Shown: positions 15,473 through 30,271 of the stretch, one piece after another
Layout: every line of letters starts with the position of its first letter
How positions within the stretch are numbered: position 1 is the stretch's first letter
Source of the DNA: an uncultured archaeon
GTDB lineage: Archaea > Asgardarchaeota > Lokiarchaeia > Sigyniarchaeales > SOKP01
NCBI GenBank assembly: GCA_964525635.1
Contig: CAZGJX010000023.1
Coordinates: 1-43,928 of the forward strand
Direction of reading: 5' to 3'
DNA length: 43,928 bases
Notes under the pieces: generated by a model
What the model was told of the DNA's origin: nothing
The model's input: only the letters and a program-made list of their open reading frames with translations
Databases searched by the model: none
Translations under genes and position numbers: made by a program

Positions 15473-15522
15473 TTTTTTTTGCTTAATTTAAATATGGGGA
15501 TATTATTGGAATATAATGCTAC

Positions 15523-16284
15523 TTATTTAAATTTTTGAAACATATAAAATGCTATACAAAGTAGAACTGATTTTATTAATTTAATTAACTTCACACGAGA
15601 GATTCCATGCTTTCTTGGTTCTACTGTTATAGGTATTTCACATATTTTTAAATTATTGAAACTAGATCTAAATAAAATTTCAGTTGTAAAACCCATCCCT
15701 GTAAATTTAGTATGTTTAAGTAGTTTAATACTTTTCTTGTTAAAAGCACGATATCCACTTTGGTTATTTTTTATTTTCTTTCCAAAAAATATCCATAAAA
15801 CATTAGCTATAAATATTTCTCCTGTTCTAACGTGGAGTGGTATTTTATAAGTACATTCACCCAAATACCGTGATCCAATGACTACATCTGCTTCATTTTT
15901 TATAATTGGTTTAATTATTTTAGATATTTCCTCAGGATTATGTTGACCATCAGAATCAAGAGTTACAATAATATCTCCTTTAGAATGTTTAAATCCTGTT
16001 AAAATTGCATTTCCATATCCTCTATTTATTTTATGTTTAATGATCTTTATTCTTGAATCATTAATTTTTTTTATTTTCTCTATACTATTATCTGTTGAAC
16101 CATCATCAACAATTATAATTTCGGTAGGATGATGATTTGGAATCTTATATAAAACATTTTGAATTGATTTTTCTTCGTTATATAAAGGGATAACAATTGA
16201 AACTAAAAAATTATCATTTTTAAAATAACTTTTTGGTTCAAATTCTTTACAATTAGTTTCAGATATTAGATTTTTTATGGTCAT
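15523..16284 (-). CDS. GT2 glycosyltransferase, DPM1/polyprenol-phosphate type
   Basis: VIPLYNEE, VDDGSTD, NRGYG, LDSDGQH, GSR and QSGYRA motifs. Confidence 0.92.
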   Translation of the reverse strand: MTIKNLISETNCKEFEPKSYFKNDNFLVSIVIPLYNEEKSIQNVLYKIPNHHPTEIIIVDDGSTDNSIEKIKKINDSRIKIIKHKINRGYGNAILTGFKHSKGDIIVTLDSDGQHNPEEISKIIKPIIKNEADVVIGSRYLGECTYKIPLHVRTGEIFIANVLWIFFGKKIKNNQSGYRAFNKKSIKLLKHTKFTGMGFTTEILFRSSFNNLKICEIPITVEPRKHGISRVKLIKLIKSVLLCIAFYMFQKFK

Positions 16285-16552
16285 ATATTTATAATCCTTT
16301 TTAGAAACTATTTTTTAATTATCTTAATAAGATAAAACAATGTTTTTAATAAACTGAAACAATAAAATTATTTTAATATAATATATGTTTGATTTTATTT
16401 ATATTAAGCTATTAAAAACAAATAATATTTTAATAAAAAATTATTAAGCTAGATCTTATTATTAATTTAAGATAACAATTATTCACAAAATTTAATTGTT
16501 TTTCCTTTTAAAAAAAAAAAATTTAGAAAAAAATAATTTTGTTATTTAATTC

Positions 16553-18808
16553 CTAAATAACCCAATATATTGGTTCAATTATACCAGTTGTGCTTTTAGA
16601 GGAGAAAACTTTATTTAAATATGGTAATTCATAATATTGATGAACTTCTGTGGAATTTAATCCACTATAGAATGTCCATCCACCATAGACTAAAAAGTAA
16701 TCAGTAAAAAAAATGTAAACCTCTGTATTATAATCATTCTTTAATTTTTGTAGAATATTTACATTATCAGAGATATGTTCATCTGGTTTTAAAAGGCTAT
16801 TATTCACTTTTATGAAATAAAAAGATGAATCTAATTCAAGTAAAATATTATCTTCGTCAAAAGGATAAGAATAATACATAATAGGATAATGCCATCCAAA
16901 CTCAGTAATAATTACATTCTTATTTGATGTGTATTTACTATACCCCTGAATCATACTTAATTCTCGTCTTTCTAAACTGAAATTCCTAAAAGTAACATTA
17001 TTATAAGAAAAAGAAGCGATTAATGAAAAGATAATAATGAAAGATAATATAAATGTAAATTTTTTATATTCGATTGCTCTAATTTTTATTAATTTATAAA
17101 TATAAGAAATAAATCCAATTATTATACAGGGAGAACTGATATGTATAATTCTTAACCAAAATCCTTTAACAATAAAAATCATATCATATATTAACGCAAA
17201 GAGTATTAATAATCCAAAGCCTATTGCCCATATATACAATATTTCACCTTTTGAAGTTTTTTGAAACATAATCAAACCCCATCCTGCAAAGAATGCATAA
17301 AGAAACATTTCTGTTGATGTTATTGCACTTATAATATCTAGATTAAGCGTAAAGATGTTCCCGATCATGAAGATCGTCGTTAGAAGAGAAACGATAATGA
17401 TTGCTGATGGAATAATAATTTTACTCTCTATATTTTGATGCTTCTTGAATTCATGTGAATCTATTTTAAAAAAATCATTTTGACCAAATTTTATTGCCTT
17501 GACAAATTTTCTAATAATTGGAATAAAGATTACTAAAAGTCCTAAAACTAAAAGAAAATAATAAAAAATTGGAAGCTGACCTAAACCCGAAAAAACTATG
17601 AAATGACTAGTTCCAATATCTAATAAATAAAATATAAAAAAAATCCCCATTAAAATACAAAGAATGATAAAATCGATACCCCTTCTATAGTCTTTCAAGA
17701 AATAAATTAAAAATATCCATAAAAAGGAAATCAATAAAATCATAGTTACTAAAGAATGTGTTAATAATGCACTTAGAAAAAGCAGGATGATTAGAGTATA
17801 AGATATTATCATATTAGTTAAAAAATGATGTTTTTGAATAGTTTTAAGCTCTACGTACTCACTGATTCGAAGATATAATATAAAAAAAATCATTAATCCT
17901 TGTAAATATGCTAAACTTTCTGGCCAGAATAAATGCATAATTCCTCCGAATCCTAAAGATGAAAAACTTAAAATAAATACTCCAAAAATCGCTAAATTTC
18001 GATTTTTAAATATTCTTTTAAAAATTATGTAAAGTATCATTGCTGATGTAGGAAATGTATAAAAGACATAAAATTTAGGAATTAATATGATATCCATACC
18101 CGAAAAAAAATGAAAGGCTGAACTAAATATATGCAATCCCATTGCTCCAAAATATTCATGTGAAGGAACAACATTAATTTCAACAATATATTTAATAATA
18201 GAAATATGAAGCCATGAATCAGTTCCTAAAAAAAGACTGACAGAAAAAATATTAAATAAACATATCAAAATCAAAAATACAATTAATAAAAAAATATTCA
18301 AAGAAAGTTTTTGTTTTAAAAAATTCAACAAAGAAAAATTATTACAAAATTCAGTATAATTCTTTGAGTTTTTTTCAAAAATTAAAAATCCTTGATTTCC
18401 TGATTTATTAAGTTCTATAATAGAATAAAGAAAAGTTATTAAATACGTAATTAAAGTAATAAAGTAGAAATAATAAGCATTAATAAGAAAATCAGCTAAA
18501 GAACCAAAATATCCAATTAATATATAAAAAGATAAATTTAAAATAATGGTAAAAATTAGTCTCTCTATAAAATTGATTTTCATTCTTCTTAATATTATAA
18601 AGAAAAGTGGGTATGAGGGTATAAATAATATTATAAAAAGCGAGAAAAAATAAGATATAATATTATCAATATTTACATTATTAATTTGTAAAAAAATCAT
18701 CATTAATGAAATCATTGAAACTATAAAACTAATTAAAATCCGATTATTAAAAATAGAAATCATTATTTTATTTCGATTATTTCTTGTCATTCTCATTTTC
18801 TTATTCAA
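16553..18808 (-). CDS. polytopic membrane protein, probable GT-C-fold glycosyltransferase
   Basis: Many TM segments, a GTDSWLH loop after the early helices and a soluble C-terminal domain; lies in a glycan locus. Confidence 0.6.
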   Translation of the reverse strand: MNKKMRMTRNNRNKIMISIFNNRILISFIVSMISLMMIFLQINNVNIDNIISYFFSLFIILFIPSYPLFFIILRRMKINFIERLIFTIILNLSFYILIGYFGSLADFLINAYYFYFITLITYLITFLYSIIELNKSGNQGFLIFEKNSKNYTEFCNNFSLLNFLKQKLSLNIFLLIVFLILICLFNIFSVSLFLGTDSWLHISIIKYIVEINVVPSHEYFGAMGLHIFSSAFHFFSGMDIILIPKFYVFYTFPTSAMILYIIFKRIFKNRNLAIFGVFILSFSSLGFGGIMHLFWPESLAYLQGLMIFFILYLRISEYVELKTIQKHHFLTNMIISYTLIILLFLSALLTHSLVTMILLISFLWIFLIYFLKDYRRGIDFIILCILMGIFFIFYLLDIGTSHFIVFSGLGQLPIFYYFLLVLGLLVIFIPIIRKFVKAIKFGQNDFFKIDSHEFKKHQNIESKIIIPSAIIIVSLLTTIFMIGNIFTLNLDIISAITSTEMFLYAFFAGWGLIMFQKTSKGEILYIWAIGFGLLILFALIYDMIFIVKGFWLRIIHISSPCIIIGFISYIYKLIKIRAIEYKKFTFILSFIIIFSLIASFSYNNVTFRNFSLERRELSMIQGYSKYTSNKNVIITEFGWHYPIMYYSYPFDEDNILLELDSSFYFIKVNNSLLKPDEHISDNVNILQKLKNDYNTEVYIFFTDYFLVYGGWTFYSGLNSTEVHQYYELPYLNKVFSSKSTTGIIEPIYWVI

Positions 18809-18818
18809 TTTTTTATTA

Positions 18819-19796
18819 TTAGAAATTCATCTTTATATTATAATTATCTATATACCATTTAAAATAATCTTTTAATCCTTCTTCGTGATTATATATGGGT
18901 TCAAAACCAAGAAGATTCTTTGCTTTATTAATATCACTATAACTATGCAATATATCCCCAGATCTAGGTTTTTCAAATTTTATCTTTATATTTTCCTTAT
19001 TAGTTATTTTTAACATCAGTTTTGCAATTTTATTTAAACTAATAGGAGTTCCTAAGCCAATATTAAAGACTTCCCCATATTTATTACATTCAGTAGCTAA
19101 TAAATTTGCGTTGATGATATCTTTTATATAAATAAAATCTCTAGATTGGGTACCATCTCCAAATATTAATAAACTTTCATTTTTGATAATATTTCTAGAC
19201 CAAATAGCAATCACTCCACTATAGGCAGAATCATTTTGCCTTGGACCAAAAACATTAAAATATCGTAAGGAAGTTGTTTTTAAACCATATATATGATAAA
19301 ATGAATGCATATAACCTTCGCATGCTAATTTTGAAACACCATAAGGAGAAATAGGAATATTTTTCATGTTCTCTTTTTTTGGTAAGCAAGGATCATCCCC
19401 ATAGACAGCAGAACTAGAAGCAAAAATAATTTTTTCAATATTTTTCTTTCTAGCAGCATTTAAAATATTTAAGATCCCATTTACATTGATATCATTACAT
19501 AAAGTTGGCATTTTAATTGATTGGGGAACACTTGTAAATGCTGCTTCATGAAAAATTATATCTATATCTTGGAAAATGTCTAAAAGAAAATCTAAATCCC
19601 TTATATCCCCTCTGTAAAACTTAAAATCTTTATTTTTTATAGCTTTATTTAAATTTTCCATTGTACCTGTATAGAGATTATCAATTCCAATAACTTCAGC
19701 TCCAAGTTCTAAGAGTTTATCTGCTAAATTACTTCCTATAAACCCAGCAACCCCAGTCACAATAATTCTTTTGGATTGTAAATTCATAAAACACAT
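18819..19796 (-). CDS. NDP-sugar 4-epimerase (WbpP/GalE-like extended SDR)
   Basis: TGVAGFIGS, HEAA, SSSAVYG, YGVSK and RYFNVFGPRQ motifs. Confidence 0.92.
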   Translation of the reverse strand: MCFMNLQSKRIIVTGVAGFIGSNLADKLLELGAEVIGIDNLYTGTMENLNKAIKNKDFKFYRGDIRDLDFLLDIFQDIDIIFHEAAFTSVPQSIKMPTLCNDINVNGILNILNAARKKNIEKIIFASSSAVYGDDPCLPKKENMKNIPISPYGVSKLACEGYMHSFYHIYGLKTTSLRYFNVFGPRQNDSAYSGVIAIWSRNIIKNESLLIFGDGTQSRDFIYIKDIINANLLATECNKYGEVFNIGLGTPISLNKIAKLMLKITNKENIKIKFEKPRSGDILHSYSDINKAKNLLGFEPIYNHEEGLKDYFKWYIDNYNIKMNF

Positions 19797-19819
19797 CTCT
19801 CTAAATTTTTAAATAGTCA

Positions 19820-20791
19820 TTAAATCCCTTTGTTTAGATATTTTATTTGCCACTTATATGTTTTTTCTAAACCTTCATCAATATTAAATTTAGGATTAAA
19901 ATCTAATATTTTTTGAGCCTTTTCTATTTTAGAAAAAGTAATATTTACATCTCCTTGTTTTTTTTCAACATATTGTACATTTTTTGGTTTGTTTGCAATC
20001 TTATACATTTTATTAACTAATTCATTTACAGAAACCGTATTTGAGGTCCCTAAATTAAATACCTCACCATTAGAATTTTTATTTTCAGCAGCTAGAATTA
20101 AACCATCTACAATATCTCCAACATAAGTAAAATCTCTTAATTGCTCCCCATTTCCAAAGATCTTTATCTTTTTATTTTGTATAATAAAATTAAAGAATTT
20201 TCCAATTGCCATATCAGTTCTTCCATGAGGTCCATAAACAGTATAAAATCTTAAAGAGGTTATTGGTAGATTATACTCACGATAATAATAATCAGCATAT
20301 AATTCACAACATAACTTCGAAATTCCATATGGTGAAATAGGATTTTTTGGATGATCTTCATCTACAGGTGTATACAATGGATTTCCATATACAGATGATG
20401 ATGATGAATAAATAATTTTATCAAGATTTAAATTTAAAGCTAGTTCAAGAATATTTATTGTGCTTATAATATTATTATTTGAAAACGTATTCGCATGATT
20501 TATCGAATAGCGAACATTTGCGTGAGCAGCTAAGTGAAAAATAATATCTAATTCATGACTTACTTTTTTTAAAATATTATTATCTACAAGATTTCCCTTT
20601 ATGATATCATAATCTTCCTTGATTGTATAAGATTCTAAAATTTTATGAAGTCGTGCCTCCTTTTCATAAGAATTATTCATAAAAGAATCAATTATTAGGA
20701 CATAGTTATCTTCCTTTAATAATTTCTTCAGAAGATTTACACCTATAAATCCTGCTCCACCAGTTATTAAAATATTTTTATTTTTTATCAT
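19820..20791 (-). CDS. UDP-glucuronate 4-epimerase-like extended SDR
   Basis: TGGAGFIG, HLAA.ANVRYS, SSSSVYG, YGISK and LRFYTVYGP.GR.DMA motifs. Confidence 0.88.
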   Translation of the reverse strand: MIKNKNILITGGAGFIGVNLLKKLLKEDNYVLIIDSFMNNSYEKEARLHKILESYTIKEDYDIIKGNLVDNNILKKVSHELDIIFHLAAHANVRYSINHANTFSNNNIISTINILELALNLNLDKIIYSSSSSVYGNPLYTPVDEDHPKNPISPYGISKLCCELYADYYYREYNLPITSLRFYTVYGPHGRTDMAIGKFFNFIIQNKKIKIFGNGEQLRDFTYVGDIVDGLILAAENKNSNGEVFNLGTSNTVSVNELVNKMYKIANKPKNVQYVEKKQGDVNITFSKIEKAQKILDFNPKFNIDEGLEKTYKWQIKYLNKGI

Positions 20792-21011
20792 AAAGAAATA
20801 TAATTTCTTATCTATTTCGATAATTCCTTATGTATCATTGAAATCTTAGATCCTTATTTAATACTTCTATTCACAATTCCAATACCAATTCAAGCAAAGA
20901 ATATATCATATTTTAATAAAAAATTGATGAATCTTGATGTTATTACTATTAAATAATTTATTTTTTGAACCCTAAAAAAAAACTCCTAATATTGCTTTAT
21001 ATTTACTATTT

Positions 21012-21845
21012 TCAATAAACTGAAAAATATTTGATATATATTTTATAAATTATATATGCTAATCTTGGGAATAAAATAAGCAATCTTAAAAATCCTCTAT
21101 TTAATCCAGAAAAGAGAGAATCTCTATATCCATATTCTCTAATTGCTTTTTTTTTAATCCTATAGGTATTTATTAATGTTTCTTTGAGAAATTTATTCTT
21201 TACCTGATTTGAATTTAGTCTATATTTTATTAGTGGTTCTGAGAGATTTTTTAATTTCCACTTTCTTCCTACTCTCAACCAATAATCATAATCTTGACAT
21301 ACAAACCATTTTTTATCATAAAGACCAATCTTATTAATTACTTTCTTTCTTAGTGTGACACTAGATTGTGTAAATGGATTTATGTTTCCAATTTTCTTTT
21401 TAATCTCTTCATTTTCTAATGGATAATTTCTTTTTCCTATTATTTTAGACTCCTCATTAATTATAACAGCATTAGAGCCCACCATACCATAATCAGGGTT
21501 ATTTTCAAGGAAATTAATTTGTTTCTCTAGTCTATTAAGAATTGCAACATCATCACTATCAATAATTGAATAATATTTAGCTTCTGGTGAACTACGTTTG
21601 AAACCTCTATTTCTTGTCTCGACTATTTTTAAATTTGTTTTATTTCTATAACATTTAATCCTCTTATCGATTTTGGAATAACTTTGAATTATATCCCAAC
21701 TATCATCTGTGGAACAATCATCAATTATGATATATTCAAAATTTTCATAAGTTTGATTGATTATGCTTTCGATTGTTTCAGAAATATATTTTGAATTATT
21801 ATAATTTGGAGTGAAAACTGACACTAATGGTTTATTTTTTTCCAT
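21012..21845 (-). CDS. GT2 glycosyltransferase
   Basis: PNYN, IIDDCSTD, DSDD and QDYDYWLR motifs. Confidence 0.92.
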   Translation of the reverse strand: MEKNKPLVSVFTPNYNNSKYISETIESIINQTYENFEYIIIDDCSTDDSWDIIQSYSKIDKRIKCYRNKTNLKIVETRNRGFKRSSPEAKYYSIIDSDDVAILNRLEKQINFLENNPDYGMVGSNAVIINEESKIIGKRNYPLENEEIKKKIGNINPFTQSSVTLRKKVINKIGLYDKKWFVCQDYDYWLRVGRKWKLKNLSEPLIKYRLNSNQVKNKFLKETLINTYRIKKKAIREYGYRDSLFSGLNRGFLRLLILFPRLAYIIYKIYIKYFSVY

Positions 21846-22043
21846 TTTTCAAACTAGTTATAAACTTATTATTAATTCATGAGTTCAATTCTCAATATAT
21901 CAAATATAAATCCTTGATTATTATAAAAATTACTTGAATGAAATTATTTTATTTAGATTTTATTGATTTTATAACTTCAATTATCTTTTATTTTAATGAT
22001 ATACACAATAAGTAGGTTAGATCTGATATATATTTTTAATGGG

Positions 22044-22919
22044 TCAATCTTTCAGTTTTTTATTACTTTTTATTTGAGCAAATTTTGAAAATAACTGATG
22101 TAATATATTAAAAATACCTCCTTTCTCTTCCTTTTGACCTAATTGAAGATAATAATAATATTTCAATAATAAGAATTTAAATCTAAACCAGTTATAAATG
22201 TAAGAATTTATACCAAAATTCAGAAATTCTCTTCTATATTTCTGAAATAGTGATTTAGTTCCATTAATTTTCTTAATATAATTATAACTTATTTGATTAT
22301 CAGAGGTATGTTGTATTGCTAAACATTTTGGAACAAAATCAAAATTACATCTCTTTGCTAATCTTAAAGCTAAATCATATTCTTGATTTGAAGAAAGATT
22401 GATATCGAACTTAACAATAAATTCTGTTTTTATCAACATACTACATGTTCCATAAATACAATAACTCTTAAATAAATTCTTGAGAATGTTACCCCTAATA
22501 TGATTTCTCTTTATACCTGAGATATCAACTCTTTTATACTCTATATCACATACAACAACCCCTAGATTTTTAATTCTAGAGGTTTGAAATTTATTTAATT
22601 GAATTTCTATCTTTTTTGGTAATAATTCGTCATCATCATCTAAAAAATTAATATAACTTCCTTTTGAAAGAATGATACCTTTATTTCTGCTAAATGTTGG
22701 ACCTTTATTTTCTTTATTACGATAATATCTTATTCGATTATCCTTGAAAGCCTTAATAGTTGGTAAAAGATTAGTCATTGAATTATCATCAATAATAATC
22801 ACTTCGATATTTCTATATGATTGATTTAAAACAGAATGAATAGCTCTTTGGAGGTATTTTGGTCGATTATACGTTGGAATTATTATAGAAACTAAGGGAT
22901 TATTCATATTATAAGACAT
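22044..22919 (-). CDS. GT2 glycosyltransferase
   Basis: IIPTYNR, IIDDNS, FLDDDD and QEYDL motifs. Confidence 0.92.
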   Translation of the reverse strand: MSYNMNNPLVSIIIPTYNRPKYLQRAIHSVLNQSYRNIEVIIIDDNSMTNLLPTIKAFKDNRIRYYRNKENKGPTFSRNKGIILSKGSYINFLDDDDELLPKKIEIQLNKFQTSRIKNLGVVVCDIEYKRVDISGIKRNHIRGNILKNLFKSYCIYGTCSMLIKTEFIVKFDINLSSNQEYDLALRLAKRCNFDFVPKCLAIQHTSDNQISYNYIKKINGTKSLFQKYRREFLNFGINSYIYNWFRFKFLLLKYYYYLQLGQKEEKGGIFNILHQLFSKFAQIKSNKKLKD

Positions 22920-23064
22920 TATATTTAATGATTTTAATTAAATACATTATAAAAATTTCTCGAATTTTTAACATTATTTAAGGTTATATCAAACTTACAT
23001 ACTTTCTAATGTGGTTAGTCTACTTTTTTTTTACCCTAATTAAAGCAGAAAGCCATGTCCTTTA

Positions 23065-24378
23065 CAGTAGTTCGTAATTTTATAATCTTACATTTCTATC
23101 ACCTTTTCCTTTTCAAAATGTTATCAAGAGAAAATATTGAGTAACAATTTGAGTCTTAGGGTTCTGGATTGCATGAAGGGCACTCCAAATGCACCATTCA
23201 TGAATTCAAGCAATCTTTCTTGATATCTGAATACCTGCCAAATATTCCAAAGATATATAGCAATAAGAAAAAGAAATAGGCGCGTGCTTAAATTTACAGA
23301 ACAGGTTCGAGGTTGAAATAGATGCTTATCTCTATATCCCGTCTCTATGTTAAATCTAAGCTTGTAAAGCTTATCTGCCTGCTTGGGAGTGATGTCTAGG
23401 AAGGGAGTTTTCATGAGTGCTTTGACTTTACCATTTAAAAGCTGTGTTGTCACCTCAATTGGAACAGTGAGCTTTCTGATCCAAGTATCTCTTAAATCTA
23501 CTCTATGCCATCTTCTCTGCCAATTGCGTGGTTCTACCATTTTATAATGAGCAAGTGAAGTTTTAACCCGTCGAGTCATGATTTTTCGAGCAATACATGG
23601 AACATTCATTTCTGTTAGCTTGCGTAAAACGCGTACTGTTGGGAACTCACCATCCATTATTATAAGATTTGGTTTTAAGAGGTGTGATACTCTTTCATAG
23701 AGTTGAAGAAAGAGATCGTAGATCTTTGCACCAGGAGGACGATGGATGACCGCTATAGTAAAATTAAATTTATCAAGATGGATATCAGCAGTGAGAAAGG
23801 TATACCCTTTATTAGTACTATGCTTTAATGGTCCTTTTTTAATATCTGGATTATCATTATTCCCATAATATGGATCTACATGAAAATCAAGGATGAATAT
23901 TCCTTTTTTCTCTATATCATTCCTAAGTTTATTTGAAAGATTGTTATAAGAAGATTTTAATAAGTTATTAATAAAATCCTCCATGATCGCTGGAGATACA
24001 TCCCTTAAGCACTTGAGAATGAGTTCAGACGAAGGATAGCCTGTTCTACATTCTCTTAGGAGTCGTGTTGCACTTGAGATCGACCAATCATGAGTGGCTG
24101 CTAACTCAATAGGTGAAATGAAGCTACCTGGCATGTATCGCTGAGTATTAAATCCAGGAAATGCATGTGCTGGATGCAAGTCCTGCCATGAATGTCGAAG
24201 GTTTAAAAAGGAACGTGACTTTCTTATACCTAAGAAAACCTTCCGTTTTTTCTGATTTTGAGTGATCATGAAAAAACGAATGTTTTCTTCTATTTCAAGC
24301 TTTGGTTACCTGTCTATTATTTTGCAATTTCAACTAAATCAAAATTTTGGGTATGCCTTTATTTTTTACGAAGTACTG
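23065..24378 (-). mobile_element. ISH3-family (IS4-like) insertion sequence, 1314 bp
   Basis: Terminal IRs CAGTAGTTCGTAA / CAGTACTTCGTAA (12/13 match), 4-bp TSD TTTA (23061-64 and 24379-82), DDE transposase, higher GC than the flanks. Confidence 0.9.
23124..24269 (-). CDS. ISH3/IS4-like DDE transposase, apparently intact
   Basis: ILDFHVDPYYG, MDGEF and YKLRFNIETGYR (Y-2-R-3-E signature). Confidence 0.9.
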   Translation of the reverse strand: MITQNQKKRKVFLGIRKSRSFLNLRHSWQDLHPAHAFPGFNTQRYMPGSFISPIELAATHDWSISSATRLLRECRTGYPSSELILKCLRDVSPAIMEDFINNLLKSSYNNLSNKLRNDIEKKGIFILDFHVDPYYGNNDNPDIKKGPLKHSTNKGYTFLTADIHLDKFNFTIAVIHRPPGAKIYDLFLQLYERVSHLLKPNLIIMDGEFPTVRVLRKLTEMNVPCIARKIMTRRVKTSLAHYKMVEPRNWQRRWHRVDLRDTWIRKLTVPIEVTTQLLNGKVKALMKTPFLDITPKQADKLYKLRFNIETGYRDKHLFQPRTCSVNLSTRLFLFLIAIYLWNIWQVFRYQERLLEFMNGAFGVPFMQSRTLRLKLLLNIFS

Positions 24379-24469
24379 TTTAGGGCATGGATGAATGCTT
24401 TTAAATGAAGATTTTATTAAATTTTCTCTGAGCTCATTTTTAAATAAAAATATATCTTTCTTTCTTAAA

Positions 24470-25720
24470 ATGCTTCGAACTAACATCTTGGAACTGAAAC
24501 CTACAAAACAACAAGAAAAAATTTTAAAAGAGATGTTAGTAAGAAGTAGTGCTCTATGGAATGTGGGCAATTTTCAAAAACGACAGGCCTTTTTTGGAAA
24601 AAATGCCCCAATTCCTTCATTTTTTAAACAATGTGAGGAATTGAAAACTCACGAACTCTATATATCCTTAGGGAGTGCATATTCTCAACAAATTTTAAAG
24701 AAATTAGATACCTCATGGCAATCATTTTGGAACTCACTTACTTCTGAAAAAGTAGATCACAGAGTTTCTATTCCCTCTTATTTTAAGAATTATAAGACCA
24801 ATCAAACACTCCCTAAATTATTGATTTGCAGGAATGATTGCTATCGAATTGATCCTAACCATATCTATATCCCTTGCTCTAAAGATTTAAAAAAAACAAA
24901 TGGAATCAAAGGATTATTAAAGATATCATATAATGAAATACGGAAATGGAAAGGTCTTAAGAAATCTATGGAAATTAAATATTTTACTTATAATAAGAAA
25001 TTCTATGCATATCAAATCGAAGACGTAGCCCCTTCCCCTATCCAATCTAAGGAACAAAATATATGTTCTATTGATATGGGAATTAAAAGATATATAGCAG
25101 CATATATTAAGAATTCTAACGATTTTTGTATAGTTTATGAATCAGAACACATTTTTAAGAACTATCTCACTATTTCAAAAAAGATCGCTTACTATCAAGC
25201 AATCGCAAAATTAGAAAACAACCGATAAAGTACCCATAGAATAAGACGACTTTATCTTAAACGAAAAAGAGCTCTTGCCAATTACCTTAATAATATTCTT
25301 GCTCATTTATTTAGGAAATTACAGAACTATCATGTTTCTGCAATTATTCTTGGAGATTTAAAGGGAATCAGAACTTCCCAAATTCCTCACATTTATTCTG
25401 TAGTTTCTTAAGAAAAAGATGATAAGACCAGTAGTTTTGTATCATCTTATTTATCTTCTTCTTATTGCGATAATAAGGAGGAATTTGGAATTAAACTCAT
25501 CCAAATAAATGAATCATATACTTCATCTACATGTCCTATCTGTAAGGAGAGGATTGTTCCAAACGATAGAGTCTTTCGATGTCCCTATTGTGGTTATAAG
25601 CAAAATAGAGATGTAGTAGGGTGTATTAATATATTAGAGATACATATTCACGATTATCATAGAAATGATATAAGGCTAGAGACCTATCCTGTAGTGTCTA
25701 AGATTCTGATTGAGTCTTAG
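24470..25720 (+). pseudogene. tnpB: TnpB RNA-guided endonuclease pseudogene
   Basis: LKPTKQQE HTH, RuvC-I SIDMG, ILGDL, ESYTSSTCPIC..CPYCG zinc finger, RuvC-III NRDVVGCINI. In-frame TAA at 25226 and an inverted segment at 25389-25477. Confidence 0.93.
25378..25488. repeat. 11-bp inverted repeat flanking an 89-bp inversion
   Basis: CCAAATTCCTC at 25378-25388 and GAGGAATTTGG at 25478-25488. Confidence 0.9.
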
Positions 25721-25779
25721 GGACTACGAATCCATCCCCTTCTGGGAATGGTAGTTCAATTCATATTTTTAATTAAAAA
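25560..25779 (+). ncRNA. putative TnpB reRNA/omegaRNA scaffold plus flank-derived guide (5' boundary approximate)
   Basis: By analogy to characterised TnpB systems, the scaffold overlaps the tnpB 3' end and right-end hairpin, and the guide follows TCAA. Expression is not shown. Confidence 0.4.
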
Positions 25780-25897
25780 TTTTCGGTAAATTTGAATTTT
25801 GATTATCTTTTTTAGCTCATCTTAAAATTTATTTTATTTGATATTTTTTAAAAGTTAACTAATTTGTATTCTTCTTAAAAATAAAGTTGTAGTTAAA

Positions 25898-27541
25898 GTG
25901 GAAGATAAAAAGATAAAAGATCAGAAATATTCAGATGATAAAATTCTTATTCAAAATTCATTTTATTCTTTTCTGAATACCTACGGAAATTTTTTTTTTT
26001 TTTTAATCATAACAGTTTTAATAGCGAGATTAGTAGGTGAGGAAGAATGGGACCACTTCATTATTATTAATTCATATATCCTAATAATAACAATTATATT
26101 ATCATTCTTCCCGCCAGGATTACAAAGAACTCTACATTATTATCTTCCAAAATATATATCCCTAAAAGATAATAATAATTTAAAGATTCTAATAAAAACA
26201 TCTCTTGTTTCAAAATTTATTTTTCTTTTGCCAATTTTCTTTATAAGCTTATTAGTTTTTTATTTTTTCCAAGATTCATTTACAATCATTTTGCAAAAAG
26301 AAAATGTAAATCTTTTATTTCTAATATCCCCATTAATTATAATAATCAGTATGGAACTTGTTCTAAATTCAATCAATGAAGGCTTTAATAAATACCATAT
26401 ACTTTTCTTTCTTTTACTTATAAAATATTTCCTTTATATTGGATCATTACTTTTAGTTTTCCTTTATGTTGGTGATTTAGATTTAGAACTTATTGTTATC
26501 ATAAATGTTCTAACCTTTTCTATTCCTTTTATGATTAATTTTCTCTATGTGTTAAGTCTATATTTTAAGATTAAAAAATCAACTCAAATTCCAATATTAC
26601 ATAGTGAACAGTTTAAAAATATTTTAAAATATGGTATTCCTGTTAGAGGAGCTAGATTTTTATCTGAAATTTGGGGAGAAATCCAAACGATATCAATTGC
26701 AGCATTCGATCGTGATTATGTATCTGGATTTTATATAGCGAAGACTTATCTTTCAGTAACAAGTAATGCTATTAACACATTTACTTCACCTCTAACAGTT
26801 AGTTTTTCAAGTTTGATCGCGAAAAACCAGAAAGAAAAAGTCATATCGATTTATAAATTGATAGTTAAATATTCATTACTCTTCTTTCTACTCTTAACAG
26901 GACTTATGTTCATAGCAACAGATTGTATATTATATATTTTTGGAGAAGAATACCGTCAATACTCTTTTATAGTTAAAATTTATCTTTTTTCTTTTCTATT
27001 TTTATCCTTTGCTTCTCCTTTTGATTCTTTAATGTTGGCGGAGAATAAAGGGACTATTATTTTATATTTACGAATAATTGGATTAATTTTAAGATTACCA
27101 CTATTTCTAATTCTACTGATTTCTTATGGAACAATTCCCGCTATATGTGGAGTTATTCTTAGTAATCTGATCTTTGGTATTATTTATTTAATATTCAATA
27201 AAAAAGTGGGAAAAATAGATTTGAATATAAAGCAAATAATTCTCCAATACTTGATATTCTTTATCTCACTTACTTTAATTTATATTCTAAAAATATTAAT
27301 TTTGGATGATATTGAATTATATATTTTTAAATCTTCAAACCTCAAGCTTTTTTATCATTTATCTCCATTATCATTATTGTTGTTTTTTTGTATATTTCTT
27401 TTCCTAAATATTATCTTGAAAGTTATTTTAATAGAAGATATCGAAAAATTAAAAAAAATTTTTCAAAAACAACCTCTCATTAATAAGATTTTGGCAGTCA
27501 TTTTAAAAATTCTTAGAGTTATCACTAGACAGAAAAAATAA
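25898..27541 (+). CDS. oligosaccharide flippase (Wzx/MOP superfamily)
   Basis: About 14 TM segments, IARLVGEEEW and ILKYGIP patterns, located in a glycan locus. Confidence 0.85.
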   Translation: MEDKKIKDQKYSDDKILIQNSFYSFLNTYGNFFFFLIITVLIARLVGEEEWDHFIIINSYILIITIILSFFPPGLQRTLHYYLPKYISLKDNNNLKILIKTSLVSKFIFLLPIFFISLLVFYFFQDSFTIILQKENVNLLFLISPLIIIISMELVLNSINEGFNKYHILFFLLLIKYFLYIGSLLLVFLYVGDLDLELIVIINVLTFSIPFMINFLYVLSLYFKIKKSTQIPILHSEQFKNILKYGIPVRGARFLSEIWGEIQTISIAAFDRDYVSGFYIAKTYLSVTSNAINTFTSPLTVSFSSLIAKNQKEKVISIYKLIVKYSLLFFLLLTGLMFIATDCILYIFGEEYRQYSFIVKIYLFSFLFLSFASPFDSLMLAENKGTIILYLRIIGLILRLPLFLILLISYGTIPAICGVILSNLIFGIIYLIFNKKVGKIDLNIKQIILQYLIFFISLTLIYILKILILDDIELYIFKSSNLKLFYHLSPLSLLLFFCIFLFLNIILKVILIEDIEKLKKIFQKQPLINKILAVILKILRVITRQKK

Positions 27542-27571
27542 ACTTCAATGTTATTAAATTATTGTTATTTC

Positions 27572-28804
27572 TTATTTTAAAAGTAATTTTAAGGATTTAA
27601 GGATTTTAATAATATAAAACTCAAAGATAATTAAAAACTTACATTTTCTACCAATTTTTCTAAATAAATTTGCTTTAAACAATTTTATTCTAATCTTTAA
27701 CAAGGAGACAAGTCCTATTTTTTTATAAGAATGATATAAGTAATTATTATAGGTTAATATCTTATTTTTCAACGAGATTTTTTGAGATTTTACAATATTA
27801 TTAAAATCTTCAGCTTTAGATTGGAATAAATAACTATATTCTTGGAAAATTCTCTTTCCTTTTTCTGTTCTTATTATTATATTAGATTTTCCTTTTATAT
27901 CATAACCATCTTTTATATAACAATCCCCAAATGAAACATCTGCTAAATGGTTTAGCTTATCGTAGCAATATAAACATCTATTTAGTCTGAAATATTTTTT
28001 ACATAAAAGACGAAATCCCCTACTTAGTAAATACTTTTTTCCTTCTTCTGATAATATTTTAGAATTGCCCGGCCATCCATATTTTTCCTTACTTCTATAA
28101 TAAAATGCTTTTATTTTTATATCTTTATTCTCATAAATTCTCTTTATAAAATTAAGAAAATCATAGTTCATAGTTGAATCACAAAATAAACCTAAATATA
28201 GCAGGTCAAGTTTCTTGTTTTTATTAATTCCTTTAAGATAATTTATAATGGTATATATTTGACAAGGAGTTCCGACAATAATATAACTTTTTTTTTCTTT
28301 AATTTTCTTAATTTGATCCAAGATGTTGAAAATAGAAGCTGGTAAATATTTAGAACCTGTTGAGCTTTTAATATCCCTATTATCTATAATTAATTTAATA
28401 TAAGCAGGATAATTATTAATATCCTTATAATCTAAGACAAATGCGCCATCATATTTCTTATCTTTTAATAATTCACTTACCAGAGTGGTTATAATACCTC
28501 CACTAGTTGAAATTTTACGTACTTGTTCATCTTTACTGTACATTTCATAACATTGAATTATTCCATTTTTTTCAATATCCAAATATGATTTAAAATTGAA
28601 TAATTTTAAAGGATCAAGATTTATTCCAGGACATATTTTTAAACAAAGACTACAATTTGTACATTTGTCTGATATAATTTCAGGTAAAAATTGTCCTTTA
28701 TGAAACATCATCTCGATTGCATTAACAGGACAAATAAATCTACATGCTTCACATGAAAGACATAAATTCCGTCTTACCGTTTCTCTAATATCTTTATTTG
28801 CCAT
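27572..28804 (-). CDS. FrhB/FdhB-like (F420 dehydrogenase beta) protein with 2x[4Fe-4S]
   Basis: CLSCEACRFICP, CTNCSLCLKICP, STSGG, GSKY, VGTPCQ, GLFC and CLYC..ADVSFGD motifs. Confidence 0.9.
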   Translation of the reverse strand: MANKDIRETVRRNLCLSCEACRFICPVNAIEMMFHKGQFLPEIISDKCTNCSLCLKICPGINLDPLKLFNFKSYLDIEKNGIIQCYEMYSKDEQVRKISTSGGIITTLVSELLKDKKYDGAFVLDYKDINNYPAYIKLIIDNRDIKSSTGSKYLPASIFNILDQIKKIKEKKSYIIVGTPCQIYTIINYLKGINKNKKLDLLYLGLFCDSTMNYDFLNFIKRIYENKDIKIKAFYYRSKEKYGWPGNSKILSEEGKKYLLSRGFRLLCKKYFRLNRCLYCYDKLNHLADVSFGDCYIKDGYDIKGKSNIIIRTEKGKRIFQEYSYLFQSKAEDFNNIVKSQKISLKNKILTYNNYLYHSYKKIGLVSLLKIRIKLFKANLFRKIGRKCKFLIIFEFYIIKILKSLKLLLK

Positions 28805-28836
28805 AATTAATTAAGGATTATGTTTTGAATTTATGA

Positions 28837-30135
28837 TTAGATATACATAAATGGTGTTTTTGATGTTTTATGAATATAATCCATTTTCCTTATTATCTTT
28901 TCTTTTTCTTTAAAACAATTATCTATCATAAAATTTATTTTTTCTTCTATTTCCTTTTTTTCAAATTTGTTTCTAATATCAAAATAATATTCCAATTGAT
29001 CAAATTCTTTCATTAATTCTTGGTATTTATTAGCCCAACTGATAACAATAGCAGGAGTTCCTAGTTTATATGAAGTGACAATAGAATGATAGCGAGAGGC
29101 AACCATGAATTCAAATTGTGTTATGAGTTTTTCAAGTTTTAATATGGTAAAGTCTTGCCTAAGTAAGATAACTCTCTCATTTTCTGAAAATATCTTCTTT
29201 AATCTTTCACAAATATATAAATCTTCTTCAGAATGTGAGAGTAAATAAACATTTTTATCGTTTTGAATTAATTTATTTATCAAAATATGATATAATTCAT
29301 AGAATTCTTTTTCGTTTATTCTTTGAATTATTCTAATATTTGGTATTATCCCAATAGAATCAGATTTTATTTTAATTATATTAATATTTTTCTTCTCTTG
29401 ATATATATTTTTTAAGTTGTATTCTTTATTTGTAAGAACAATATCCCAAGATTTAATAACATCTTTTTTCCTCAAACGCAAAACATATTTTAACCCATCA
29501 AACTCTCTCACAAATACAATATTTGGATATTTTAAATAATATTTTGATAATGTAAAAAAGATCAATTTAGTAAACACTGAAAAATCAAATGGACCTATTG
29601 ATTGAGGAAAAATGTAATAATCAATATTGTATTTTTGTGCAATCATTATATCTAAAATGGATGAAATCCAGAGTTGACCCATCTGAGAGGTAATTCTATA
29701 TCCACTAATATCAACTATTAATTGTGTTTTTTTGAGTATTTTTTTGATTTTTCTTTCTAATTTAGAATATTCTCTGTAATAAAAAAATAAATATCGATTG
29801 AGGAGATTTGTTAGTCTAATTCTTAATTCATTAGACCATGGTAGAGTTTTAAATTTGAAGAGTTTGTCATTAACTTTTTTGTAATCTCTGTCCAAAAGCA
29901 CGTAGATATTCTTGTTTGGGTATTTTTCCTTAATGATATTTATTGATGTAAAAATCATTGCTTGAGCTCCTTTATTGAAGAAATTAGCTCCTATAATAAG
30001 AATATTTTCTTTGCTCGAAGGTTGTTGTTTGTTTTTTTTAAAGATTTTAATAAAAGGAGTTTCCAGTAATAATAAAAGAGGTAAGACATGTTGACCAATG
30101 TTATTTAATATATTTTGTACCTTTAGATTCATCAT
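28837..30135 (-). CDS. polysaccharide pyruvyl transferase (WcaK-like)
   Basis: NKGAQAM, PQSIGPF, FVRE, ASRYHS and ISWANK motifs. Confidence 0.9.
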   Translation of the reverse strand: MMNLKVQNILNNIGQHVLPLLLLLETPFIKIFKKNKQQPSSKENILIIGANFFNKGAQAMIFTSINIIKEKYPNKNIYVLLDRDYKKVNDKLFKFKTLPWSNELRIRLTNLLNRYLFFYYREYSKLERKIKKILKKTQLIVDISGYRITSQMGQLWISSILDIMIAQKYNIDYYIFPQSIGPFDFSVFTKLIFFTLSKYYLKYPNIVFVREFDGLKYVLRLRKKDVIKSWDIVLTNKEYNLKNIYQEKKNINIIKIKSDSIGIIPNIRIIQRINEKEFYELYHILINKLIQNDKNVYLLSHSEEDLYICERLKKIFSENERVILLRQDFTILKLEKLITQFEFMVASRYHSIVTSYKLGTPAIVISWANKYQELMKEFDQLEYYFDIRNKFEKKEIEEKINFMIDNCFKEKEKIIRKMDYIHKTSKTPFMYI

Positions 30136-30271
30136 TATTCAAAAATTAATTTATATATTATTAATTGTAGATAAAATTTATTTTTTTTTTTATATAGTCT
30201 TGAATTCAAAAACATTTTTAGGATGAAATTTTATTTGCTTATTATAAAAATAATAAATCAATAAAAAATAA

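Follow-up and report, generated by a model that had tools for sequence, protein, structure and literature searches.

The tnpB gene of the window (the whole 43,928-nucleotide stretch of DNA analysed here) would be annotated as two seemingly unrelated gene fragments, and the question raised by this locus is what separated them. The sequence-only reading of the window had proposed an exact inversion of a short segment inside the gene and had offered three origins for it: inactivation by template switching, an on/off inverton, or an artefact. Our analysis indicates that one flipped segment explains the break between the fragments. This is a known kind of mutation in a new instance, and most probably a one-off copying accident rather than a genetic switch. 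The features of the gene that bear on this question are as follows.

24470-25720, plus strand: pseudogene of tnpB, with 416 codons and a stop after flipping of the segment; Pfam OrfB_IS605 and Cas12f1-like TNB; 81-83% nucleotide identity to the paralog C93
25226-25228, plus strand: nonsense codon 253 (TAA), where both paralogs have a Tyr codon (TAT), by alignment and translation
25378-25388, plus strand: left arm of the inverted repeat, CCAAATTCCTC, encoding part of S-Q-I-P-P
25389-25477, minus strand: inverted 89-nt segment, whose minus-strand reading gives codons 307-336
25409-25411, plus strand: in-frame TAA created by the inversion, seen on translation of the as-assembled frame
25478-25488, plus strand: right arm of the inverted repeat, GAGGAATTTGG, encoding part of C-E-E-F-G

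The inverted segment and its arms

The segment at 25389-25477 comprises 89 nt between 11-nt inverted repeats whose arms are 100% complementary, which bears out both the coordinates and the 11-bp inverted repeats reported in the sequence-only reading. Both arms adjoin the segment directly, so that the breakpoints lie within the flanking inverted repeats. As assembled, the tnpB frame stops at the TAA at 25409-25411, and reverse-complementing 25389-25477 takes this stop away. The result, confirmed by translation, is the reading frame that had been predicted: 1251 nt, or 416 codons plus a stop, with one internal TAA left (25226-25228, codon 253). The two repeats had also been placed within the coding sequence, and indeed the left arm encodes part of S-Q-I-P-P and the right arm part of C-E-E-F-G.

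At the protein level, the inversion puts antisense sequence in place of 30 codons, those for the helix that follows RuvC-II and precedes the zinc-finger/TNB domain. The residues of the paralog C93 that are homologous to the flipped segment align with a conserved helix in chains of solved Cas12f structures, where this helix is followed by a strand with the YTSQ motif at its end and by the zinc finger.

A second, longer repeat is found across the left inversion junction, where 24630-24642 and 25381-25393 form a perfect 13-nt inverted repeat, AATGTGAGGAATT. In the uninverted state this pair would be a 13-nt direct repeat with both copies encoding C-E-E. The inverted arrangement results from the flip and is no feature in its own right.

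Repeats and restored frames expected by chance

An 11-nt repeat by itself is at chance level in this genome. Across its 4.45 Mb (26.8% GC) there are 3717 repeat pairs with arms of at least 11 nt and spacers of at most 400 nt, a density of 0.83 per kb compared with 0.62 per kb in block shuffles, which amounts to about one pair per tnpB-sized gene.

The restoration of a reading frame was assessed in a flip screen of 34,150 repeat pairs with arms of at least 9 nt, in which a hit was a pair with no open frame as assembled and with one that opens once the spacer is flipped. The screen returned 40 such pairs, whereas 36 were expected from random flips at repeat-free sites (0.105%), and the hits that we inspected were gene junctions or genes on the opposite strand. 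There is thus no genome-wide excess of frame-restoring flips among the 34,150 pairs, and because they occur at chance level, a frame restored by a flip does not by itself count as evidence where the genome is AT-rich. Codon usage did not discriminate for tnpB: the flipped spacer scored -0.22 per codon and its flanks scored near 0. Judged from these sequence comparisons, the proof of the inversion lies in homology, that is, in nested matches on the opposite strand, and neither in the repeat nor in the frame.

Comparison with other copies of the element

Two paralogs of the window tnpB were found in the same genome, C93:8823-10171 (81% identity) and C9:9014-10300 (76%). The C93 copy encodes an intact protein of 416 amino acids and is the only intact copy in the genome. 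The C9 copy carries single-base deletions, has its match to the C93 protein spread over three frames and is a pseudogene too. In blastn comparisons, positions 25379-25488 of the window match both paralogs on the strand opposite to the rest of the gene, with 90% identity to C93 and 80% to C9; in tblastn, residues 304-339 of C93 match positions 25487-25380 on the minus strand (91.7% over 36 amino acids, E 7e-15). The same nested opposite-strand pattern was obtained against all seven homologs in three congeneric genomes (G003:C434, G003:C128, G002:C169, G002:C286, G002:C113, G002:C177 and G001:C132), and three homologs from metagenomes keep their collinearity with C93 throughout the segment. Once flipped, the window gene and C93 can be aligned over 1349 nt with 83.3% identity, 0 gaps and no change of length, and the segment itself is 90% identical to C93, compared with 81-83% overall.

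The opposite-strand homology sits precisely inside the gap that the collinear alignment leaves, as an exact inversion within tnpB, the central claim of the sequence-only reading, would have it. That reading had also suggested that other copies of the element be compared. All of those that cover the segment (12 of 12 copies or fragments) are uninverted, namely two in the genome itself, seven in the three congeneric genomes and three in metagenomes. Since the window copy alone is inverted, the inversion is the derived state.

It could nevertheless be that the organism carries the uninverted sequence and that the flip arose during amplification, library preparation or assembly. Template switching by polymerases at short inverted repeats also occurs in vitro, and the window copy is held by one assembly only, with no independent record found. 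An exact-protein look-up found the same copy in no other assembly, and a junction pattern covering both orientations had no match in metagenome contigs, where the closest relatives of the window copy share 65-71% protein identity with it. Likewise, a survey of the genus with one genome per species gave matches at paralog level only (at most 81%) and no further genome of the same species.

Several observations argue against such an artefact. An inversion in place requires two precise junctions, each of which must be dominant among the reads to enter the consensus, and a repeat of 11 nt is shorter than the usual assembler k-mers, so it should not create a false path by itself. Completeness of the assembly, which consists of 245 contigs, is rated at 100% and contamination at 3%, and the congeneric genomes are bins of Promethearchaeia (Lokiarchaeial Asgard archaea) recovered from metagenomes; such completeness, together with binned congeners, is typical of unamplified shotgun data and not of amplified single cells. 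Chimeras of amplification usually take the form of inverted duplications, and a self-comparison of the 4.45 Mb revealed no inverted duplications on the same contig at 98% identity or above. The chance-level number of frame-restoring flips (40 versus 36 expected) speaks in the same direction. We consider it unlikely that the inversion is an artefact.

The element and its three lesions

Outside the coding sequence, the ends of the element could be delimited by alignment with the two paralogs.

23035-23064, plus strand: outer left end, up to the loop of a subterminal hairpin (CATGTCC TTTA); alignable to the left ends of both paralogs after deletion of 23065-24378
23065-24378, minus strand: DDE (IS4/ISH3-like) insertion sequence of 1314 bp in the loop of the left-end hairpin; Pfam DDE_Tnp_1, E 5.8e-6
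24379-24469, plus strand: inner left end and leader upstream of tnpB, conserved with C93 and C9
25721-25759, plus strand: right end, finishing in TCAA; conservation with C93 and C9 stops after TAGTTCAA

The DDE insertion sequence, whose transposase ORF occupies 23124-24269, sits exactly in the 4-nt TTTA loop, and TTTA is duplicated on its two sides (23061-23064 and 24379-24382). Its excision restores the hairpin CATGTCC-TTTA-GGGCATG as it is found in C93, and with the insertion removed the left end is again collinear with both paralogs. The window copy thus bears three independent lesions: the inversion, the TAT>TAA change at codon 253 and the DDE insertion in the left-end hairpin. An alternative genetic code in which this TAA is read through was rejected, as both paralogs have TAT at the position and the 416 codons of C93 form one open frame under translation table 11.

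By Pfam, the domain pair of TnpB (the OrfB_IS605 RuvC domain followed by the zinc-ribbon/TNB domain) is present. In the window, the tnpB fragments fall below the cutoff for PF01385 (22.6 and 24.3 bits against 30.5) and pass for PF07282 (63.9 bits), whereas in the intact paralog C93 both domains pass, at residues 186-300 and 325-388, respectively. The RuvC-I motif SIDMG and the RuvC-III motif NRDVVG are present in the window gene. At the position of RuvC-II (window 25340-25372, C93 residues ~290-300), LGDL or LGNL was read by eye, the HMMER alignment being offset there, and this places Gly where the catalytic Glu is expected. A candidate alternative Glu lies in INE or IDE immediately ahead of the YTS motif. 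In having Gly at RuvC-II, the family of the window tnpB and C93 resembles TnpB branches with a rearranged catalytic site (PMC10691335).

The element is a decaying, non-autonomous element of the IS200/IS605 type with tnpB as its only gene. Its closest likeness is to the IS1341-like non-autonomous tnpB elements of the IS200/IS605 family, in the branch with Gly for Glu (PMC10691335), with which it shares the domain content, the subterminal hairpin of the left end, a conserved 3' block that runs into the right end and the TTAC...TCAA boundary. It differs from them in that the window copy is triply disabled. The right end and the 3' part of tnpB form the conserved block in which the guide (omega) RNA is expected to lie.

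A stretch of ~100 nt that closes the element (window ~25665-25760) and comprises the 3' end of tnpB and the right end also occurs as stand-alone copies with 71-91% identity in congeneric or related genomes (G001:C210, G001:C127, G002:C218, G002:C286:43611-43707, G003:C96, G003:C678, G006:C18 and G006:C24), which may represent either right ends left behind on their own or miniature derivatives. For the inner left end (24380-24405), a 26-nt match of 96% identity was seen on nine contigs of G017, a genome of a related genus, often 82-107 from the contig end. This suggests that an element present in several copies and sharing this hairpin end interrupts that assembly.

Timing and mechanism of the inversion

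The substitutions within the segment indicate when it was flipped. When the flipped window gene is compared with C93, dN/dS is 0.18 for the whole gene; for codons 307-336, read in the flipped frame, it is 0.07, with 6.5 synonymous differences against 3.5 non-synonymous ones. A ratio this low in the flipped frame means that nearly all of the divergence arose while the segment was translated uninverted. The divergence being mostly older than the inversion, the latter is recent relative to the split of the paralogs (dS ~0.6).

At every position, both arms of the window copy have the majority base of the homologs, and from this comparison it appears that the perfect repeat probably pre-dates the inversion. 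Homogenisation of the arms by the event itself was rejected as an unnecessary assumption, given that the arms match the majority base of the homologs. A perfect repeat that was already in place may be the reason why this copy, and not others, was hit.

We put the probability at roughly three in four that the segment is a recent micro-inversion in a decaying tnpB, produced by a spontaneous, repeat-mediated error of replication or repair. In such an error, the nascent strand would leave its template at one arm, the spacer would then be copied from the opposite strand, and the strand would return to its original template at the other arm; microhomology-mediated break-induced replication at the same arms would be a closely related route. 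We infer both the template-switching mechanism and a cellular, as opposed to in vitro, origin. The inversion serves no function, and a pseudogene such as this one tolerates changes that selection elsewhere would purge. Among the three origins offered by the sequence-only reading, inactivation by template switching fits best, in that the inversion is unique to this copy, its perfect repeat is absent from the homologs and the gene has two other lesions; nothing points to an artefact, and the on/off inverton fares poorly for the reasons given below.

In coding DNA, spacers are known to be inverted when the template is switched between short inverted repeats, mostly where the arms are already perfect and longer than 9 bp (PMC8604942). 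The Ripley-type spacer inversions of quasipalindromes described in coding genes of yeast (PMC8604942), for which a four-point model exists (PMC5453318), resemble the window in the exact reverse complement of the spacer without change of length and in breakpoints that lie inside perfect arms of more than 9 bp in coding DNA. They differ from it in the spacer, which is of only a few bp in the yeast genes (3-5 nt versus 89 nt; PMC8604942), and also in that the window product is a null allele of a gene that was already decaying, with a mechanism that is inferred. Micro-inversions are consistently bounded by inverted repeats, with microhomology-mediated break-induced replication as an alternative route (PMC8755829). 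The cases described between human and chimpanzee are like the window in being clean inversions whose flanking repeats abut the breakpoints, and unlike it in size and setting, since they measure 17-33 nt in primate genomes and the present one measures 89 nt in an archaeal insertion sequence. The length of the spacer is only weak evidence against our reading, because the published surveys are limited by selection or by their criteria.

Taken as a case, the locus is a clean and well-controlled example of an inverted-repeat-mediated micro-inversion in an archaeal pseudogene, with an unusually long spacer. It carries little biological weight. Its chief value is a methodological caution, namely that the valid test for such inversions is nested opposite-strand homology and not the restoration of a frame.

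Evidence on a reversible switch

An intragenic inverton would require a recombinase that reversibly flips the segment and so turns tnpB on and off, with the assembly having caught the off state. Short perfect repeats inside a gene, with a stop in one orientation, have the geometry of reported intragenic invertons (bioRxiv 10.1101/2023.03.11.532203), and homologs of serine and tyrosine recombinases are present elsewhere in the genome, as three matches to the Resolvase domain and two to the Phage_integrase domain, all of them on other contigs. Intragenic invertons have been reported in bacteria, with one archaeal case; by definition, both orientations of such a segment occur in reads, and invertases are believed to drive the flipping (bioRxiv 10.1101/2023.03.11.532203). 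The window segment is like them in lying wholly within a gene, in being bounded by inverted repeats and in producing a premature stop in one orientation. It departs from them in that it has no conserved repeats and no nearby invertase, and in that its host gene is dead regardless.

Complementarity of the arms is 11/11 in the window copy, compared with 9, 8, 6, 6, 5, 4 and 4 of 11 in seven homologs; the arms are therefore not conserved as a pair and vary as coding sequence does. The 11-mer of the arm occurs five further times in the genome and is never paired there. Repeats that are not conserved among homologs had been named in the sequence-only reading as part of what would count against a switch, and that is what we observed; its proposal of an on/off inverton finds no support. 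Every other copy is in the on orientation. The window tnpB itself would stay off whichever way the segment lay, owing to the TAA in codon 253, and the left end of this copy is disrupted as well, so that a switch would have nothing to control. In view of all this, we regard a recombinase-driven inverton as highly improbable. A variant of the idea is that the segment still flips in the population, either in a programmed manner or spontaneously but recurrently, and that it originally toggled the RNA-guided nuclease of the transposon before being caught in the off state and decaying; to this we give marginally less credence still.

Genomic surroundings

The ten large ORFs within ~10 kb of the element include no recombinase by Pfam, which likewise speaks against an inverton. 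They match glycosyltransferases, epimerases, a MatE-like membrane protein, a pyruvyl transferase, an FrhB-like protein and a class I tRNA synthetase, and one has no Pfam match. Both insertion sequences, the tnpB element and the DDE element within it, lie inside a glycan-biosynthesis cluster (window 15500-30200) that contains three GT2 glycosyltransferases and two NAD-dependent epimerases/dehydratases in addition to the MatE-like protein, the pyruvyl transferase and the FrhB-like protein. The MatE-like membrane protein, which gave a weak match, is possibly a flippase.
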